Origin: Amoebophrya sp. A120
Lineage: Eukaryota; Protista; Dinoflagellata
Length of the DNA: 10,633 nt
Direction: 5' to 3'
Assembly: GCA_905178155.1 (NCBI GenBank)
Contig: CAJINV010000084.1
Location: 1-10,633 of the forward strand
The position numbers and the translations under genes are program-made. How positions within the stretch are numbered: the first letter of the stretch is position 1; every line of letters begins with the position of its first letter. This document shows positions 1,602-10,633 of the stretch, piece after piece. Below the pieces are notes generated by a model, which was given only the letters and a program-made list of their open reading frames with translations, had not been told where the DNA came from and made no database searches.

Positions 1602-3323
1602 ATGGCCTCCCTAACAAGTGAACTGCCGCCGGGCGAGGAGGTGGAGCTGCAGCAATCGGAAGAGCCGTCAGTCGAGGCCTGTTTGAAGACAAAGAAGTCG
1701 ACAGCAAAAGACGGAAGCGCTACTGCCAGCTCTCAAGCGGCCGACAAGAATCCGGCTGTTCCAACCGCAAGTGCCTCCAAAGTGGACAAGAAAGTCGTGA
1801 TTCTGCGCAAAGGGCTGTCCGGTGAGGAAAAAAAGTTCTGTATTGACACCGAAAAGGTTAAGTGTGTTGCAGACCTGGCCCAGTTATTTGTGCCAACCTT
1901 TTACACGAGCGAAAGCGACGAACTTTGCCCGCCGTCTTCGCGGCTGCTCTGGTTGGCAGGCGAAGACGAGCCTGCAGAGGAAGACAGAGACAGCGCAGAT
2001 GAAAATCATTCGCCACTTGAAGATGGTGATGGAGGCGAGCAGGGCGACCCGCCGCAGCTCCCGGCCTCGTCCGATGCTTCCGCTTTTTTTGCACATAGTG
2101 AGGAACTGGTGTTCAGTGCGGACGGAGAGGCTGTCTATCGCTTCATGGTCAAAGTCGAGGGGCCGTCCGGCAACCTGATGGAGGTCGAGGAAAGCAGCGA
2201 CGACGAGTATTCGGTGTCCGAACAGGAGGTACTACCGCGGCGCGTGCCACAGGAACCCGAGAAGATCAAAAGTATCGCCGCAGCGGAGAACTGGTTGTAT
2301 GACAGGTTTTACCGCTATTTTTTGCTCCCCGGGAACTCGGACGAATTCAAAGAAACGTATGGGCCGGAGCGGCTCGTGCGTCAGCGGGAGCGGACGTACT
2401 ACAACGACGCCGGAACTACAAGGAGGACCGACGTGGGTGCCGAAGTGCAAGCGCTGCTTCCACCGCAATATGCTGATCAGCCCGACTCGAGAAAGTTTCA
2501 GTATGTCGTCTACAGCAAGGCGAGCACGGAGTTCAAAATCCATAGCCGAGCATGGCCGTTGTTGGCCGTAGTCTTGCGCCTAAGTGACACAGAGTGGATC
2601 AAGCACGGATGGCTACCGCCCAGCGGAGTGAGTGGCTTCTCAGAAGTGCGGCAGCGGTACTGCGAAGGCATTCTCTTCGAGCTTGCAGACTCCCGCAGCG
2701 ATGCGAAGGAGGCGCTGCTCCGTTTTGTCATCGGCCCCGCACTGGATCAAGTCACTGACTGGGACAGGTTTCGTTTCGCGCAATTTGCAAATCGGACGGC
2801 AAGAAACTTCTGCGAGTTCCCTGTTTTTCCTCCTGAGGACCCGTCGCTACCGGTGGCGCGTCTTGTTTTCGAGCGTCTCGGGAATTCCCGCTCCCGCTTA
2901 GAAAAAGTGTATGAGGGTTGCAAGAGTGTCATCCGTCAGAGGTACAAGGAACGAAATTTCAAGGCCAACCCTAATTCCCGGTTTCCGCCACCTGATCCAT
3001 TACACCCGGAGCCGACTCTGTACCGTTTTCGAGACGAGCGGCCTTCCGTTAGGCGCACGTTTGTGCCGCATTGGATCGAGGTTCAGTTAAAAGAGCGCTT
3101 GAAATCTTGGCTGGATGAGGTGTTTGTCGATAAATTTGCAGCGGCTGGATTTCCTGACCTCGGGAAGGGCCTGCATGCGTTTTTAGACACTGTGCATGGC
3201 GAGGTGACGAGCGCAAGCCGGCAGGTTGGGAAATTACTGCAGAGCCTCACGGAACCAGAGGAAAATGATCTCTCGCGCAAAAGCGGAGATGAGGAGAACA
3301 GACAAGAAGCAGAGGATAAATAA
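1602..3323 (+). CDS. Hypothetical protein, tandem paralogue copy B (573 aa, apparently intronless)
   Basis: Long ORF. The ATG at 1602 sits in a gccATGg context just after an AT-rich intergenic stretch; an in-frame ATG at 1581 is an alternative. Acidic, low-complexity N-terminal part, then a region conserved with copy A. No family recognised. Confidence 0.8.
   Translation: MASLTSELPPGEEVELQQSEEPSVEACLKTKKSTAKDGSATASSQAADKNPAVPTASASKVDKKVVILRKGLSGEEKKFCIDTEKVKCVADLAQLFVPTFYTSESDELCPPSSRLLWLAGEDEPAEEDRDSADENHSPLEDGDGGEQGDPPQLPASSDASAFFAHSEELVFSADGEAVYRFMVKVEGPSGNLMEVEESSDDEYSVSEQEVLPRRVPQEPEKIKSIAAAENWLYDRFYRYFLLPGNSDEFKETYGPERLVRQRERTYYNDAGTTRRTDVGAEVQALLPPQYADQPDSRKFQYVVYSKASTEFKIHSRAWPLLAVVLRLSDTEWIKHGWLPPSGVSGFSEVRQRYCEGILFELADSRSDAKEALLRFVIGPALDQVTDWDRFRFAQFANRTARNFCEFPVFPPEDPSLPVARLVFERLGNSRSRLEKVYEGCKSVIRQRYKERNFKANPNSRFPPPDPLHPEPTLYRFRDERPSVRRTFVPHWIEVQLKERLKSWLDEVFVDKFAAAGFPDLGKGLHAFLDTVHGEVTSASRQVGKLLQSLTEPEENDLSRKSGDEENRQEAEDK
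2138..2327 (+). repeat. Direct repeat (tandem gene duplication), near-identical segment, copy 2
   Basis: Matches window 1-190. The first 95 nt are identical and the first mismatch is ggtacC versus ggtacT. Confidence 0.95.
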
Positions 3324-3921
3324 AAGTGAAAACCATGATACCAGGGAACAAAACAGAGTCAAAACGCTGGAGAAGAAATGACTCGCCAGCATATGGATAG
3401 TGGCCTGATCTTTACATAAGTACATACGGGGACGACGCGCAGAAAGCAGGACAGGGCGTGTCCATAGTGTGTTTTCGTCCTACGTTCTTCATGGTCTTCT
3501 TTCGGGGTCCTCGATCCAGATATTGTGTGTGTCGCTCGCGATGGACGATCTCACGAATAGAACCGATCCGTTTGCTTGTTGCAATGAGATCTCTATTTTT
3601 TGGACTACGGTAGTACGGCGCCAGGGCCAGGTGCAGTTTATGAATGAGGACTTTTTTTTCCTGTGAGAGAGAGACAGTCTTACCTTTCCCGGAACATACG
3701 TCTGGAGTCAGATGCAGATGTTGTGAGTTGTTGTGCTCCTGCAAGTTCTTCAACATGAGATTTTCTATCGATCTTTCCTTTTGGAAGTAAAATTCTACGC
3801 CGGCTTTCCACAGCAAATTTTTTTCAACCATCCACTTTCATTTTATTGAGATACGACGGACACCATGGTCTCCGTTTCCTCCAGTTAAAGTGAATCTCCA
3901 GGGCTCCCGAGTGGCAACAGG

Positions 3922-6816
3922 ATGAATCCGCAGACTGGTGCCGCCAAGCGGGTGGTCATTCAGAACGGCGGCGTGGAGAAGCAGGTTGAGATTGTTGCTG
4001 ACGGCTACCTGGACCGTGGGAACGTGGTGACCGGACAAATCGACCTGCTGATCGAAGAGTTGCAGGCCCTCAGCCTGCGGCTGACAAACGAAAACTTCAA
4101 AGACGAGATCGCGCAGCAGGCGGAACACACCAAACGCACGAAGCCGGCCAGTCGCGCGATTCTCGCGCACCAGCAGCGGCTGCAGATGGTGCAGGCCCTC
4201 CAGCGGAAAGTGAATGCTGCGTTTCCCTACGGGGGGAAGGAGCACCCGTACCCCGCAATCCTGAACTTCGAAGGGCCAGAGGAGGCCGGCGTGTCCAGAC
4301 TGCGGTCCGTCGGGGAGTTGCCGGCCATCACGACGCTTCTCGGCGAACACCTGCTGCAAAGCGGCCTGTTTGAGTCGTTCGAAACGTTTCGGCAAGAGGT
4401 GGAGCGCCAGGTTCACGACTCGTTTGCCGAGGACGGGGAAAACTACCGGCACAGCTTGGCTTTCGGTGCGGAGGAATCGGGAGAAAAGGATAAGAACGGC
4501 GACACTACTTACGAGGGAGCCGGTGGACAGCGGCAGCATGGAACACAAGAAGAGCAGGCACAGGAGAATTATAGGAATGACATTTACGGAAATTATGACG
4601 AAGATTACGACGAGGAAGAGGTCTGGAACGAAGATTCCACTACACGACAAAAACCGGCAGATCAAATCGATGAATTTCATTTTCTGTTCACCAACCCCTC
4701 GTCTTTCCAGCGGTTTTTTCAAGCGCACGAATCCGGACCGGGAGGCGGTTTTTTTGCGGGCTACGGCAATGCGGTCTTCGCGGTTGAGGAGGACGAGGGT
4801 GGCGACGCCGTGCGCTGCAGCAGCGTGGGCGACGTGATTTCCGCGTCCTGGGCCTTCGCACTGAAGACGCTGAAGGAGCTGTGCAAGTGCTGCGACCTCC
4901 ATCCTGATGTTTTGGATTCATCATCCTCGGCCGCGACAGGCAAAAATGACGAGCGACAGGAGCATTTATTCGGTTCGAAGAAGCTGGATCCATTGTTCCG
5001 GTATCTGGCCCACGTGAAGCACCAGTTTCAGACAAGCCTGAACATTTTGGGCGAAGTGGTCTGGAGCGAAAACTGCTGGGCCAGCGTAGCGCACGAGGGG
5101 CATCTGCTGTCCTGTTTCGAGTTCGAGCTGTTAGTCTGCAAGTACATGCAGATGCTGTTGTCTTGCTTTGCAAGAACATCAAACACGGGCTCTTCAACCT
5201 CTACTGCGTCTCTCAGCACACAGAGGCTCGAGGCGTTTCAGTTCGCGCAGAAAAGCTTCGCGCCCTTCCTGAAATGCCGCGGACAGGAGGTGGGGCGGTT
5301 GCTGACGCTTTCGACGCTGCAAGCGAATGGGGAGGTACTGTTGAAGAGAACACTTCAAAAGCGCCTCACTGTGCTGAGGAATTTGCTGAGAAAGGTTTTT
5401 TTCCTGACCACCGAAGTGCCGGCTTTGTCCCAAGAGCAGCTTGTGAACTATGATGAGATGGTGGAGCTTCATTATGACGTTTTGGTGAAATCGGGTATCA
5501 AAATTTCACCCGACAACACCTTCAAGCGCACGGCGCAGCCAGGCACCGGAAACACAGCGGCGCAACTAGGAAGACACAAAAATCGCAATGGTCGTGACCT
5601 CCAGAAGAGTTCATCTTCTTTCCTCGCCTCCGCTTCCGGTGGAGCAGACAACGGAACGGGCTCCGCACGCTCTCCCGGAGGTGGCCACGGCTACAACAGT
5701 CGTCAGGGGCATCAACCCGCCCAGGGAGAGATGTGGCCACCGAGTTTAAAGCGTAGGCGCAGCACGGACGAAGATGCTGTCGACCACCAGCACCACGCGT
5801 GGCCGTCGCAGGTGGAACCGAGGTCGCTCCTGCCACCGACCAGACCTATGTTTCCGGACATAACCCCCTTTCCGCTACTCGTGCCAGCCAGCGACGACTA
5901 CTACGACGTGTTGAACGTCAGAGACGAAGACGACGACGATGACACCGATAGCACATCGAGCACAGACCAACGGGCAGCGGACGACAAGAATGTCGCAGAG
6001 GAAGCCCTTTCTTCTCGCTGCGAAGTGAACCCGGAATGGATCGACATCGACTATGCCAGACATGTCGCTGCGGTCGAAAGGATTTTGACGGAAGATGAAC
6101 CGCTGGAGCAGGGTTGTGCCAATGGTGCGGCCACCGGTTCAGAAGTACTAGAGGAAAACTACAGTCCGCCGGGCTTGGGACCAGCACGTCATCAGCTCCG
6201 GCGTCCGTACAATTCCGCCTCCATGAATCTTCACGCCAGAGCCTTGCCAGCGTATCTGCAGGACGAAGAGGAAGATGCGTTTTTCACACGAAATCTGAAC
6301 CTGAGCGGAGTTGCGCCGCCTAGCGTCGAGCCGCCATACTGGGGGCCCGGTGGGCGTGCGTGCTTGGCTCATTACTGGGCAGCGCCGCCGTCTTCGCAAC
6401 ATAGAACGACCTCGGGCCTTGCGCTAGATTATGACGAGTATGATGAGCCAGCCGACGACGATAGTAACTCGAGCTTCAGCGTAGTTGACAGTTCGGCGGA
6501 GCGGTCTCCGCACGAGGGGGTCATGCAAGAAGACACCGCAACATCCTATTTGTCCAACACAGAGTTTTTCCCCCAGCAAGGTCTTGTTCCCGACGTGCAA
6601 CTGGCATCCTACTACCTCTGGGCGCGGGCGGACGCTGGGCTTGAGCGAGACCATTCCCCGCTCCGCAGTCCGCGTCGGAACCGCTCCGGATCGGTCTCCT
6701 CGGTATCCAGTGCGCCGTCTAGGGGAGTACGTCCGCGGAGAAATCGACGGAGAAGTCGGTCAGCGACGCGGCGAAGGCGAAGCGAGTCTGTTGAGTCCGT
6801 GGAGGGGAACAAGGAG
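3922..6816 (+). CDS. RMND5: RMND5-like gene, exon 1 (LisH, CTLH, start of CRA, long low-complexity insertion)
   Basis: 965 codons of the 3922..6894 ORF, ending at the donor GAG|GTGCCA. Sequence after 6817 becomes AT-rich and non-coding in character. Confidence 0.75.
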
Positions 6817-8444
6817 GTGCCACTATACTTTTCATGCAGTCGTGGAGGTCATCCTCATCTTCTCTGCAGCTGCACTTTATGTATGATTCTTTGAAGACAT
6901 ACACATAGTTATTGACTTGAACTCCTACAGTAGTTTTCTAGGGCTACTGCAATGAAAATATAAAACATCAGAGCAAAGAAAGTAAAATTGAAATCCACCA
7001 ATCGCAGGACGTCGAGATGGTAGATTCCCGCGACGCGAGCGCTGCGCGCAAATCCGCCGAGGTGATGCACGCGCAGGCGGAAGCGATTTCGTACCTCGTC
7101 CGGGAGGCCCACTACGAAAAAAAAGACAATGCGGCCAGAGCGGCGCGCCCGCGCGGGATTTTCCAAAGCTTCGGGGCGAATCTGAATCGGAACGCGCAGC
7201 TTTTTCCGCGGTACAATCCCCTGTCCGCAGCCTACGCCGGTTCCACTCTGGACGATCCCACGAGTCCGGGTGGTGACAAATCGTTCGGGAGAGCAGGAGG
7301 AGAAGATTTGTCAGAAGTTTTCACCACCGTTTCGCTGAAGCACCGAAGGGAACTGCGGCCCACCTCCCGGACGATGCAATCATGGCACAGAGGCCCCGGA
7401 GCAAGACGTAAAATTGCTTCTGACCATGCCGCAGCGGAGATGAATTATTCCAAAGGGAAGGGCCCGCTGAATAAAGCAGCGCACCATCCGAAAGCGGACG
7501 CAACATCAGTTCTGACACAGGAACAACAAGCCTTTTATGAGCCACCGGAGGAAGACGCGTTGTTGAACCTATGAAAGTGCACAACTCCCCCTCCGCCTCA
7601 TTTGTATAGCATGAACGGCAATACAAGCGTCAGCCAGAGTGCCGGTTTTGCATGACAGATTATTTACACTGGAGAGTAGTGCTATTTGGGCTGCCAGAAC
7701 TTGTCATGCAAACAGTGCCACATGACAGCGACTAGATTCGGGGTTTTGCATGACAAACGAGGGGGAGGGGGAGTTGTGCACTGCTATAGAACCCGAGCAG
7801 TCACTACCTGATGCTGGTGAGCAGACCCCATCTGCGGATGCAGCAGATGTCGCAGAAATCGCTGCTGTCGGTCATTCTGGACGCGGGCCAGCAGGCCCTG
7901 CCGAAGATTCTGGAGTACCACCAGTGGTGCGTGGACCAGGACAAGGGTCTCTCCACGGGCAACTGGTCGCTGACCACGGCCGTTGTCGGCGACACGCTGC
8001 CGGTCACCCTGGATTCGCCTCCGGAATTCGCCTACGCCAGCAACTTCGTTTGTCCGGTTATGCAAGAGAAAAACTGTGTAAGTGTAAATCTGTAATGCAG
8101 AACACGCAACAGATTTACACCTGTCATGCCAGACAGCCACGAAGTTCTCTTTTCATGTGTGTTTTCCCTTACAAGCCACGCATGACAGGTTTTCTCTGTC
8201 ATGTAGAGCAAATTTGTGATGCTGTCAGCCAATGATACTTACACTAACACAGTTTTTTTCTTGGATAGCGGTCAACCGTTCGCTGACCAGAACTCCCTAC
8301 CTCCTCGCGTGCGGCCACGTCCTGTCCAGGGAGTGCGTGGACCGTCTGAGCAGAAACGCGCGCGCCTCCTTCAAGTGCCCCTTCTGCCCGCGCCAGCAGA
8401 ACTCCGCGGCCGCCCTGCCCATCAAATTTGCGCAGAACTATTGA
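3922..8444 (+). CDS. RMND5: RMND5/GID2-like RING E3 ubiquitin ligase subunit of the CTLH/GID complex; spliced, join(3922..6816,7008..7565,7790..8054,8269..8444), about 1297 aa
   Basis: LisH-like motif ITTLLGEHLLQSGLFESFETFRQE (~4327-4398). CTLH/CRA-like motifs FEFELLVCKYMQML and EAFQFAQKSFAPF...EVGRLL. RMND5-type C-terminus SLLSVILDAG..ALP, LPVTLD....AY.S.FVCPV...PYLLACGHVLSRECVDRL....FKCPFCP.QQ....ALPIKF. Four ORF pieces join in frame through three introns. Family call is from motif recognition, not a database search; the paralogue MAEA/GID9 fits less well because the KCPxCP end is intact. Confidence 0.82.
6817..7007 (+). other. Canonical GT-AG spliceosomal intron (191 nt, phase 0)
   Basis: gag|GTGCCA...atcgcAG|gac. 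AT-rich with stop codons. Removal fuses the 3922 frame to the 7017..7574 frame (GNKE|DVEMVDSR). No terminal inverted repeat seen. Confidence 0.75.
7008..7565 (+). CDS. RMND5: RMND5-like gene, exon 2
   Basis: Frame of ORF 7017..7574, bounded by a CAG acceptor at 7007 and by element 1. The 3' boundary can slide within the GAACC repeat. Confidence 0.7.
7566..7793 (+). mobile_element. Inverted-repeat introner / MITE-like non-canonical intron, element 1 (224 nt removed)
   Basis: Direct repeat AACC at 7566-7569 and 7790-7793 (GAACC if the G is counted). TIRs 7570-7605 / 7753-7788 match at 31/36. Ends are TAT...ATA-G. Removing 7566..7789 gives LL|NPSSHYLMLVSRPH, in frame with the RMND5-like SLLSVILDAG segment. 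Confidence 0.88.
7790..8054 (+). CDS. RMND5: RMND5-like gene, exon 3 (end of CRA region and first RING Cys)
   Basis: Frame of ORF 7811..8095: SLLSVILDAGQQALPKIL...LPVTLDSPPEFAYASNFVCP. Confidence 0.8.
8055..8272 (+). mobile_element. Inverted-repeat introner / MITE-like non-canonical intron, element 2 (214 nt removed), inside the RING domain
   Basis: Direct repeat CGGT at 8055-8058 and 8269-8272. TIRs 8059-8087 / 8239-8267 match at 26/29. Ends are TAT...ATA-G. Removing 8055..8268 gives FVCPVNRSLTRTPYLLACGH, a RING/U-box-like C-x14-CGH spacing. Confidence 0.88.
8269..8444 (+). CDS. RMND5: RMND5-like gene, last exon (degenerate RING finger)
   Basis: PYLLACGHVLSRECVDRLSRNARASFKCPFCPRQQNSAAALPIKFAQNY, stop TGA at 8442-8444. 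Confidence 0.85.
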
Positions 8445-9165
8445 GAAGCCATTGATGCGCCGGGTAGGAGGAAGTGAGGACGAGATGACATGAGACTCTT
8501 CTCTACAGAGGCACTGCTGCCACACGATGTTTATTTTCCACCTGGATGAACAACAGTTCGTTCTTCTTTTCGACTCGAACATGAAGCACGGCCACAGACT
8601 AGTACACTCGGACTGCCTTCTTCGTGAAGTAAGTACAAATCTTCACAGTGCTCGATAAATTCGGCGCTCCTTTGGAATTCAACCTTTATCCTGGTTCTGA
8701 AAAGTTTCTGCGATCGTACATGAAGTTCATAGTTCAATCGCGAGCGCTTACACGCAAAATCGAAGAAGCCTACCGATACAAATGTGAAATGCTCGTATAA
8801 TTTTACCCGTCAGATCACTCTAGCGCTTTTCCTTTTTGAGAGTTTTAATGCGAAATTGAAGATCTTCCTCTTCATCTCTGAGAAAGGTTCACATTTGGCG
8901 GTATTTGCAAGCAGTCATCCAATTCTGCGTTCATCATGGCGGCTGTTTTTTTTTTGGATTTAGATAGTCAGTCTCAGTAAACATCATTTTTTTCGCTTGT
9001 CCGACTAAGGAAGAGACGCACTCAACGCAGTGACTTGGTTTCGCAGTTTATTCGTCCAAGTACTACTGTTGAAAATGGAGTTAGTAGTAGACCACAGTGT
9101 TTTTGCAAAACTTATGCAAAGTCTTACACATCAGCGTTTTTCTACTACCGCTAGATTCATGAGCC

Positions 9166-10633
9166 ATGTGGACTGACGTTCTGTCAGACGACTCCTCGTG
9201 GAAAAAGTGGCGCGCGAACTCGAAAGAACGAAAGCAGGAGCATACGACAAGAGACGGACATTCAACGAGCGAAGTGCGGCCGCAGGAACAGGAGCACGAT
9301 AATTTCAGCAAAAATTCGCATCCGGTTATTGCGGACGCCTCGGGCAGTGCCTCAGCGACAACTGCGACTCTCGGCGGCGACGAGTGTGGACAAGCTACTC
9401 TCGGACAAGAAGCAACATCCTCTTTTTCCATACCAGCTGGGCTGCCAGTACAAAGCCGGATGAACAACCTGGACCATTCGTCAAACATGACAGCAGATCA
9501 GGGCAACAAGAGCCAGCCTTCGTGCCGGGACACCAGCATGGCTTCTCCAGCGACGCCCACGCTGGGGTCTAGTGGCAAACAACCGAAGAACTACACCAGG
9601 GATCACCAAAACGTTGGCGCGAATGGTGCGGAGGAGAATCCTACTCTCCGCCAAGCTGGATACAGTGAGAGGCATCCGCAGACCGTTTCGTCTGCCTCCG
9701 CGTCTTCGTCAAGATCCGGCACCACTGTGGTCCCCCACACGGCATCTTCAAAAACCGCTCGTCCAGGCACTTATTGTTCCTACACCCGTCCCATGCCTGA
9801 TTCCGTGTGGAGCACCGCCTCCAGTTCAACGCGAGACTCCCGCGCCACGGTTTCGTCCAGCAGTAACGCTGGTGGCTGGGAGGAGGAGCGACCACATTGG
9901 CCACAAGAACCGGAAATACGAAATTGTGAGATGGATGATCATGAGAAGCCTCCTTTGGAGATGCAAATGCAATCGCAGCCGCCGGCTGGACCGACGACGC
10001 CGGACGAAGACTCCATGTGTTGCGAAGACGCAGAGGAGGTTTTGGAGGGAATAAACGACCAGCAGGCTGCGATTGTGGAGGACCTCGTAGACGTCGATTA
10101 TGACAACAAGGCGGTGATCGAGCGGCAACCTGTAGGAGTACAACAAACAGGTCACGATCGAAATACGGCTTGTTTAGACCCAGGAGCTCAACCTCGTGAG
10201 CAAATAGAAATCCGACATATAGCACCAGCTGCGACCACCGGGACATCAATAAGCTACGGAAGTACAATAAAGAGCGACGCGAGTATATCGTAAGGAAAAA
10301 TCCCCCCTCCCCATATCAAAACGATGTTTCTGATGCTGGATTTGTGTACACGAATCAGATTTGTCGTGCTGGCGAGGACTGCAGGCCCATATCAAGCCTC
10401 AGTAGACAGGTTTTGGCCTAGGCGATTAGCTAGACAGACGTCTACGCTGTAGGAGCAACAGCATGACAAACCGCCTATAGAATGTGGCGGAGCCTGTAGA
10501 TTTGCCTTCATGCAATACAGCGACGATTTGTGGTCTCAAATCAGCATCACAAATTTTCAGAAGTATCCCGGTTTGGTATGGGGAGGGGGGATTTTTCCTC
10601 ACAATAGAGTACTATTCGGGATGTGGATTCCAC
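9166..10633 (+). CDS. Hypothetical protein with a Ser/Thr/Gln-rich, probably disordered N-terminus; spliced join(9166..10281,10608..>10633), 3'-truncated
   Basis: The 375-codon ORF starts at gccATGt, and its apparent stop (TAA 10291-10293) lies inside the left TIR of element 3. After excision the frame continues KSDA|STIRDVDS, open to the window end (only 8 codons visible). No domain recognised. Confidence 0.65.
10282..10611 (+). mobile_element. Inverted-repeat introner / MITE-like non-canonical intron, element 3 (326 nt removed)
   Basis: Direct repeat AGTA at 10282-10285 and 10608-10611 (GAGTA if the G is counted). TIRs 10286-10320 / 10572-10606 match at 32/35 (tatcgtaaggaaaaatcccccctccccatatcaaa). 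Ends are TAT...ATA-G. It interrupts the 9166 ORF. Confidence 0.88.

Follow-up and report, generated by a model that had tools for sequence, protein, structure and literature searches.

Three hairpin insertions interrupt two genes of Amoebophrya sp. A120

We analyzed a stretch of 10,633 nucleotides from the dinoflagellate Amoebophrya sp. A120 (contig CAJINV010000084.1; hereafter, the window), in which two genes are interrupted by three transposon-like hairpin insertions, referred to as elements 1, 2 and 3 (Table 1). Elements 1 and 2 are located in the 3′ part of host gene 1, the first open reading frame (ORF) of which spans 3922–6816. Element 3 is located in host gene 2, which stays open beyond the end of the window after removal of the element plus 5 nt. 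A sequence-only reading of the window had located these insertions and their TAT...ATA ends, both of which can be read directly from the sequence, and had described an imperfect inverted repeat in each. Indeed, the arms of the terminal inverted repeats (TIRs) measured 37, 29 and 38 nt in elements 1, 2 and 3, respectively, with a complementarity of 86–90%, and the three TIR pairs were the longest among the 99 inverted repeats detected in the window. The z scores of the RNA folds were –7.89, –8.43 and –7.87, and no shuffled sequence folded equally well.

Table 1. Features of the window, with positions counted from its first nucleotide
Feature	Position	Strand	Evidence or remark
Host gene 1, Rmd5/RMND5-like RING protein, 1297 aa in silico	3922..8444	+	
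Ordinary GT-AG intron of host gene 1, 191 nt	6817..7007	+	Junction present in P0001
Element 1, left 5-bp duplication, GAACC	7565..7569	+	Sequence; 5-bp rule from family 3 rows
Element 1, body, 219 nt, TAT...ATA, TIR arms ~7570-7605 / 7753-7788	7570..7788	+	
Element 1, right 5-bp duplication, GAACC	7789..7793	+	Sequence
Element 2, left duplication, CCGGT	8054..8058	+	First base C retained in RNA-like contig
Element 2, body, 209 nt, TIR arms 8059-8087 / 8239-8267	8059..8267	+	
Element 2, right duplication, GCGGT	8268..8272	+	One mismatch to left copy CCGGT
Host gene 2, low-complexity protein without Pfam match	9166..10633	+	
Element 3, left 5-bp duplication, GAGTA	10281..10285	+	Sequence
Element 3, body, 321 nt, TIR arms 10286-10323 / 10569-10606	10286..10606	+	
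Element 3, right 5-bp duplication, GAGTA	10607..10611	+	Sequence

The removed lengths (224, 214 and 326 nt for elements 1, 2 and 3) are not divisible by three, and each element contains two to four stop codons in each of the three forward frames, in agreement with the earlier reading. Excising each element with one copy of its duplication gave a single ORF through the RING finger, and the restoration claimed there was thus reproduced in silico. Element 2 splits this RING finger directly after the first Cys; because the last exon of host gene 1 aligns to RING profiles only from profile position 10–12 onward, the exon that precedes element 2 has to supply the first Cys. The flanking repeats allow six, five and six equivalent cut positions for elements 1, 2 and 3, respectively, none of which gives GT-AG ends.

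A scan of the window for TAT..ATA ends with 14 or more of 20 TIR positions matching, flanked by 5-bp repeats that differ at no more than one position, found exactly these three elements; among 200 two-letter-block shuffles, 199 contained none and one contained one. The elements have the features of miniature inverted-repeat transposable elements (MITEs), being short and present in many copies, with TIRs and a target-site duplication (TSD) and without coding capacity. They belong to three separate families, and in this respect their bodies are different, as had been remarked, but short motifs are common to all three. The 7-mer CATGACA (either strand) occurs eight times in the three elements (749 nt; at 7651–7749, 8122–8197 and 10462) and once in the remaining 9,887 nt. 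It is also present in 116 of the 159 copies fetched from other loci (4.9 per kb, compared with 1.3 outside), and is a candidate binding site for the transposase or a splicing factor.

Transcript-like contigs lack elements 1 and 2

Of ten sequencing runs, none recorded as RNA, four were aligned to positions 3700–10633 of the window; assembled contigs gave the results below, whereas the raw reads of run X8 gave no alignment. Record 5 of run X1 joins 7006–7564, 7789–8054 and 8269–8602 with no other letters and no gaps, its skips being exactly 224 nt (element 1, 7565–7788) and 214 nt (element 2). This contig extends to 8054 and resumes at 8269, such that the left C of the element 2 duplication is kept. 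Similarly, record 11 of run X2 has 266 letters between 7564 and 8269, which is the length of the middle exon. Both runs are argued to represent spliced RNA, because they break at the canonical GT-AG intron of host gene 1 (X2 record 10 stops at 6814 and X1 record 5 begins at 7006). At element 3, the alignments of X1 record 6, a contig of 3652 nt, and of X2 record 13 to the window both stop at 10280, which is the first of the equivalent cut positions from the left, and this junction is likely. The precise removal from RNA proposed by the earlier reading is therefore supported by the skips of X1 record 5 for elements 1 and 2 and, less directly, for element 3. The public gene model of host gene 1, which starts at ATG 5458 and encodes 785 aa, already has elements 1 and 2 spliced out; its product, P0001 of Amoebophrya sp. 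A120, was the one match in a protein search in which 7993 candidates were scored, and is identical to residues 513–1297 of the in-silico spliced product.

The possibility that transcripts use nearby GT-AG sites instead was also considered, and no such pair explains X1 record 5. With the lengths skipped in this RNA-like contig, neither element 1 nor element 2 has U2-type GT/GC-AG ends. Frame-keeping GT/GC-AG pairs do exist near the junctions, but none yields the product of the RNA-like contig; the sole listed pair with the same removed length (7577–7800) keeps element bases and drops exon bases, unlike X1 record 5.

The DNA-like run X5 retains the elements in place (records 14, 15 and 20, at a depth of 25–30). 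At the tips of the elements, 66, 67 and 38 X5 contigs have loose ends into unrelated flanks, and their agreement of ~0.36 indicates many different flanks and thus repeated elements; together with the relatives found in a second assembly, this confirms that the elements are repeated in the genome. The summed X5 depth across the element bins was 13,000–78,000, which is not a copy number. TA-type ends and short flanking repeats recall the internal eliminated sequences of another alveolate group, and it could accordingly be argued that the elements are excised from DNA, as in ciliates, and that transcripts derive from the edited template. We regard such excision as scarcely probable at all: X5 contigs carry the elements at the depth of their flanks, none of the 15 joints listed among 78 in X5 skips a whole window element, and we know of no separate somatic nucleus in Amoebophrya.

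A flush 5-bp duplication is shared by at least seven families

As a query we used 22 nt from the interior of the TIR of element 3, leaving out its terminal 8 nt and the flanks. This core matched at least 131 loci, all on JACKZZ01 contigs, and 80 of the loci have full flanks; the copy and family counts below are drawn from loci among the matches listed. These loci are likely from another strain or species, because X5 left the exons of locus L025 uncovered, although a hole of this kind proves nothing. On this locus, which was chosen for its two mismatched duplications, runs X1, X2, X3 and X5 gave short element pieces only and no exon coverage.

Pairing of the TIR cores gave 85 rows for the family of element 3 (family 3); one locus appears twice and approximately three rows are mis-registered, and all were retained. 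An exact flush 5-bp duplication was found in 71 of the 85 rows, compared with none at exactly 4 bp and one at 6 bp, and shuffled pairing of the same rows gave a mean of 0.17 exact 5-bp duplications (maximum, 3). When any TAT..ATA inverted pair in the loci and the window was collected regardless of its flanks, 208 pairs were obtained (3–8 in shuffles). An exact repeat of 5 bp flanks 126 of them, compared with two at 4 bp and one at 6 bp. In all, 159 copies were resolved, chosen such that the two halves of the duplication differ at one position at most (133 are exact). They form seven clusters of at least five copies, in which each of the window elements has relatives: the family of element 3 counts 88 copies in the fetched loci, and the families of elements 1 and 2 count five each. 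Position by position, the TAT termini are present at 313–318 of 318 ends in this partly TAT-selected set, and at 69–71 of 71 in the exact-duplication rows, which were not selected by terminus. The sequence of the duplicated 5-mers is close to random, C being slightly favoured as the first base and G as the last. Copies from 60 loci were folded, and in 117 of 123 the TIRs pair in register. TAT...ATA is hence flanked, in at least seven families, by a target duplication of 5 bp.

The sequence-only reading had proposed a different grammar, namely a 4-bp target-site duplication and one extra, element-encoded G, which would give a canonical TAG acceptor. A G follows ATA in all three window elements, and at element 2 the right copy has this G where the left copy has C. 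However, when 72 rows with a 4-bp match were read in this manner, the spacer after ATA was C in 31, A in 17, G in only 16 and T in 8, and it matched the base five upstream in 71 of the 72; the duplication is 5 bp with a variable first base. Moreover, G after ATA is possible in either orientation for only 73 of the 159 copies, the gene-oriented G (36/157) is no more frequent than in the flanks, and one contig (689 to 197) of X5, the window's own DNA-like run, is without the G in either orientation. We consider the extra-G grammar highly improbable. Within the genome-wide pattern expected from it, (N4)TAT...ATAG(N4), the TAT...ATA TIR part recurs in the loci, but the N4 and G part is replaced by the 5-bp duplication.

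Most families have G at TIR position 9 and a run of A at positions 11–15, from which the element 1 family departs; because the TIRs share this run, RNA of either orientation carries a run of U 11–15 nt before its 3′ tip. Up to four elements of different families are found within 1.6 kb in loci L012 and L025, separated by exons as short as ~30–100 nt. The same poly-T-headed sequence with TCAAT repeats lies inside a family 3 element, at a similar site, in L014 (801–1100) and L069 (520–822), and is possibly a nested retro-element. A lone family 3 arm of ~50 nt in L015 (1–830) continues straight into a long opposite-strand ORF, with no partner arm in the locus, and possibly represents a truncated or exonised element.

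Frame restoration and apparent splice motifs

Insertion sites were phased by a codon model trained on the window ORFs only, and 49 of 132 sites were confidently phased. Removal of the element plus 5 nt preserves the frame at 37 of these 49 sites, where one third would be expected; with a self-trained, partly circular codon model, the frame is kept at 51 of 64 sites. A frame test based on stop-free windows was without power (127 vs 121 and 117 of 138). GT-AG is readable at any equivalent position in only one of the 37 frame-keeping junctions. Bodies occur in both orientations, with family 3 showing ratios of 11:6 and 40:29 relative to the gene. We observed no selection for splice-like ends, in that sense-strand G at duplication position 5 (64/157), from which a GT start would result, did not differ distinguishably in frequency from the mirror C at position 1 (53/157; P = 0.24), and stop-codon constraints from 26 mismatched copies gave no information on the cut register.

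We further simulated the alignment of such junctions by sliding the 133 exact-duplication junctions, on both strands, to the best partial GT-AG or CT-AC match; this is a toy simulation and not the published pipeline. The simulated sliding gave 74% NT starts and 68% AN ends, with GT-AC as the commonest pair. Published work is cited here and below from the accessible text of each source. Family 2 of A120 (9716 introns) has 69% NT and 68% AN (PMC12130899), and GT-AC tops the A120 splice-motif list in Table S4 of Farhat et al. 2021 (PMC7789003). Because sliding inside the duplication reproduces the published spectrum, these results suggest that the published splice-motif diversity of A120 is largely junction-alignment ambiguity, and that the 5-bp rule accounts for the confusing splice-motif tables in this way.

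The joined forms could also be products of reverse-transcriptase template switching over hairpins (falsitrons), with the genes being really disrupted or rarely spliced. Falsitrons are defined by strong structure between direct repeats, together with the lack of a canonical splice site (PMC10275267). The elements show each of these features, and all of the RNA evidence consists of cDNA contigs. Nevertheless, we judge this explanation very unlikely, because frame restoration, at the proportion given above, and gene survival are left unexplained by template switching: each element has stops in every forward frame, and the conserved RING finger that they interrupt loses its first Cys unless they are removed. 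Among the pieces listed, X1 and X2 show only the joined path for host gene 1, and with insertions of this kind numbering in the tens of thousands (PMC7789003), it could not be that every one creates a null allele.

Comparison with known systems

The introners described in A120 have inverted repeats starting with TAT and direct repeats of 3–5 nt, form hairpins of ~240 nt and occur as repeated families (PMC7789003). Elements 1–3, from the same organism, share with them the TAT-TIR hairpin, boundaries made by inverted and direct repeats (here 5 nt), genomic repetition in families and non-canonical ends; RNA support for a non-canonical intron is available for elements 1 and 2 and is indirect for element 3. 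The published direct repeats are most often located four nt upstream and within two nt downstream of the inverted repeat, and one legend cites a 5-bp example (PMC7789003), whereas the elements here have a uniform flush 5-bp duplication. In addition, the A120 consensus has a run of three or more As that follows TAT and seven further bases; this run is present in elements 2 and 3 and absent from element 1, this being a family-level consensus rather than a strict rule. The elements are thus real, but their class, as the earlier reading had supposed, is already published, and elements 1 and 2 are already removed in the public gene model; the correction of the end rule is a modest refinement. Their description as non-autonomous TIR elements likewise stands, given their repetition, their TIR/TSD anatomy and the precise absence of elements 1 and 2 from transcript-like contigs. 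The accessible Amoebophrya intron literature that was searched contains no resolved splicing or mobilisation mechanism, in accordance with the earlier statement, and no single 5-bp rule for all families, although subscription papers and figures S19–S25 of Farhat et al. could hold it.

Introner family 38 of A120 is annotated as ‘Ginger; 5-bp TSD, TA/TA termini’, with integrase-like homology and Copia/Gypsy ORFs (PMC12130899). It resembles the window elements in its TSD, its termini and its nature as a TIR DNA element acting as an intron, but it is ~810 nt long with Copia/Gypsy-like ORFs, whereas the window elements are 209–321 nt with no ORF. Family 38 is the best lead to the mobiliser. A 5-bp TSD is assigned to seven of the 58 A120 families in the same source, the others having 2–11 bp or none, and the window elements were matched to none of its family numbers.

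TIRs are also shared with the integrase-like DNA transposons Ginger1, Ginger2/TDD and IS3EU/GingerRoot, among which TDD-4/5 give 5-bp TSDs (PMC2836005, PMC10045372). Ginger1 and Ginger2, however, have mostly 4-bp TSDs and TGTNR termini (PMC2836005, PMC10045372), and no transposase was seen in the eight loci inspected here; strict membership in these groups was rejected on the TAT termini. IS3EU/GingerRoot elements have TA..TA termini (PMC2836005, PMC10045372), as do the elements here, and membership was rejected on their usual 6-bp TSD (one of the 85 family 3 rows at 6 bp vs 71 at 5 bp).

Outside Amoebophrya, euglenid introns, the MITE-derived introns of Fritillaria and the IE1 introns of Micromonas likewise combine a TIR hairpin with TSD-like repeats and are removed from RNA (PMC11282704). 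They differ in their borders, which here lie within a near-random 5-mer: GT/AG is supplied or co-opted in Micromonas IE1, AG-AC/AG-AT is favoured in Fritillaria, and CAG/CTG pairing with Y|R borders is found in euglenids (PMC11282704).

Possible mechanism of insertion and removal

The anatomy, the many insertion sites, the near-random 5-bp duplication, the absence from RNA-like contigs, the frame restoration and the occurrence in both orientations are observed. We consider it moderately probable that these repeated TAT...ATA hairpins are non-autonomous DNA transposons, inserted by a Ginger-like integrase and removed by an altered spliceosome by way of the terminal hairpin and not of GT-AG. A DDE transposase making a staggered 5-bp cut on TAT ends would generate the duplication, and the ends shared across families suggest one mobiliser. 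Within the transcript, the paired TIRs would juxtapose both duplication copies, and a cut at equal offset in each copy would regenerate the original exon. With symmetric ends, an inserted element would be neutralised whichever way it points and at nearly all 5-mers, and the families could thereby spread through coding DNA. Because the RNA-like contig keeps the left C at element 2, the cut offset should be at least 1 (1–5). A likeness to spliceosomal ends exists at offset 4, which gives an N-U-A-U start, and at offset 1, which gives a U-A-N end; the two are mutually exclusive, and no strand-specific base bias favouring either was found in the fetched copies.

The weakest step of the proposal is the enzyme, that is, spliceosome or other. 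The same elements might be removed precisely by a structure-specific endonuclease and a ligase, or by a dedicated second machinery, as proposed for euglenids. The lack of a fixed dinucleotide at any register within the duplication, the single GT-AG compatible junction among 37 and the function of the elements in both orientations would fit a spliceosome-free route of this type, and the TIR/TSD introns of euglenids leave as non-lariat circles (PMC11282704). However, A120 keeps nearly all spliceosomal proteins, with only the U1 small nuclear RNA (snRNA) undetected, and 15% of its canonical introns have the same layout of direct and inverted repeats (PMC7789003); furthermore, the TIR-derived non-canonical introns of Fritillaria are reported to be spliceosomal (PMC11282704), and no enzyme is known as a candidate. 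Given the spliceosomal proteins that A120 has kept, its missing U1 and the case of Fritillaria, we rank the altered spliceosome higher, and view spliceosome-free removal as a credible but unlikely alternative.

Several points weigh against insertion by a Ginger-like integrase and removal by an altered spliceosome. The termini and duplication agree fully with neither Ginger1/Ginger2 (TGTNR, not TAT) nor IS3EU/GingerRoot (TA..TA, but usually with 6-bp duplications). No transposase was seen by eye in the ORFs of eight fetched loci, and none was found in A120 by Farhat et al. 2021 (PMC7789003). Nor was any orthologous site seen to be empty, the sole homologue recovered being the A120 protein P0001. 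Runs X1 and X2 are RNA-like by inference, are from the same sample and consist of contigs, not raw reads, and the listed alignments do not spell out the joint at element 3, because the downstream exon has only 27 nt within the window. At 12 of the 49 phased sites the removal is out of frame (undetected introns or a wrong phase are possible), and the orientation of family 3 leans one way at the strictest strand threshold (22:11), with noisy strand calls.

More broadly, we tentatively suggest, with less confidence than in the altered-spliceosome reading, that all TAT...ATA families of A120 and its relatives share one integrase-type transposase with a 5-bp cut, that removal is sequence-blind, measuring the hairpin and cutting at a fixed offset in either orientation, and that the motif diversity is mostly aligner sliding. 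One 5-bp-duplication rule across families points to a single transposase type. Copies in which the duplication halves differ by one base are natural markers, from which the cut register could be read in existing RNA-seq data. If true, a single hidden splicing rule would render a transposon almost perfectly neutral in exons. The larger question is how a eukaryote can remove introns that lack GT-AG by the tens of thousands, apparently in the absence of U1 snRNA.

Host genes and other features

The closest solved relative of the host gene 1 product is yeast Rmd5 (E = 6e-10), and RMND5A was also matched; weak CTLH matches, under the curated cut-off, are found upstream in the product. Before the public start, the reading frame continues open for 512 codons (3922–5457). 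Because this upstream ORF is open, contains a weak CTLH match and is covered in part by RNA-like contigs, P0001 is probably truncated on its N-terminal side. The middle exon of host gene 1 had no useful PDB match. Rfam gave two weak matches, both below threshold, and a promoter/terminator scan, which is not relevant to a eukaryote, gave none. A viral-contig search gave three matches (L132, L133 and L134), of which L133, the one examined, is an unrelated palindrome. Upstream of host gene 1, the window contains tandem paralogous ORFs (1–1045 and 1602–3323, the second without a Pfam match) with 92% identity over 236 nt and ~71–81% elsewhere.

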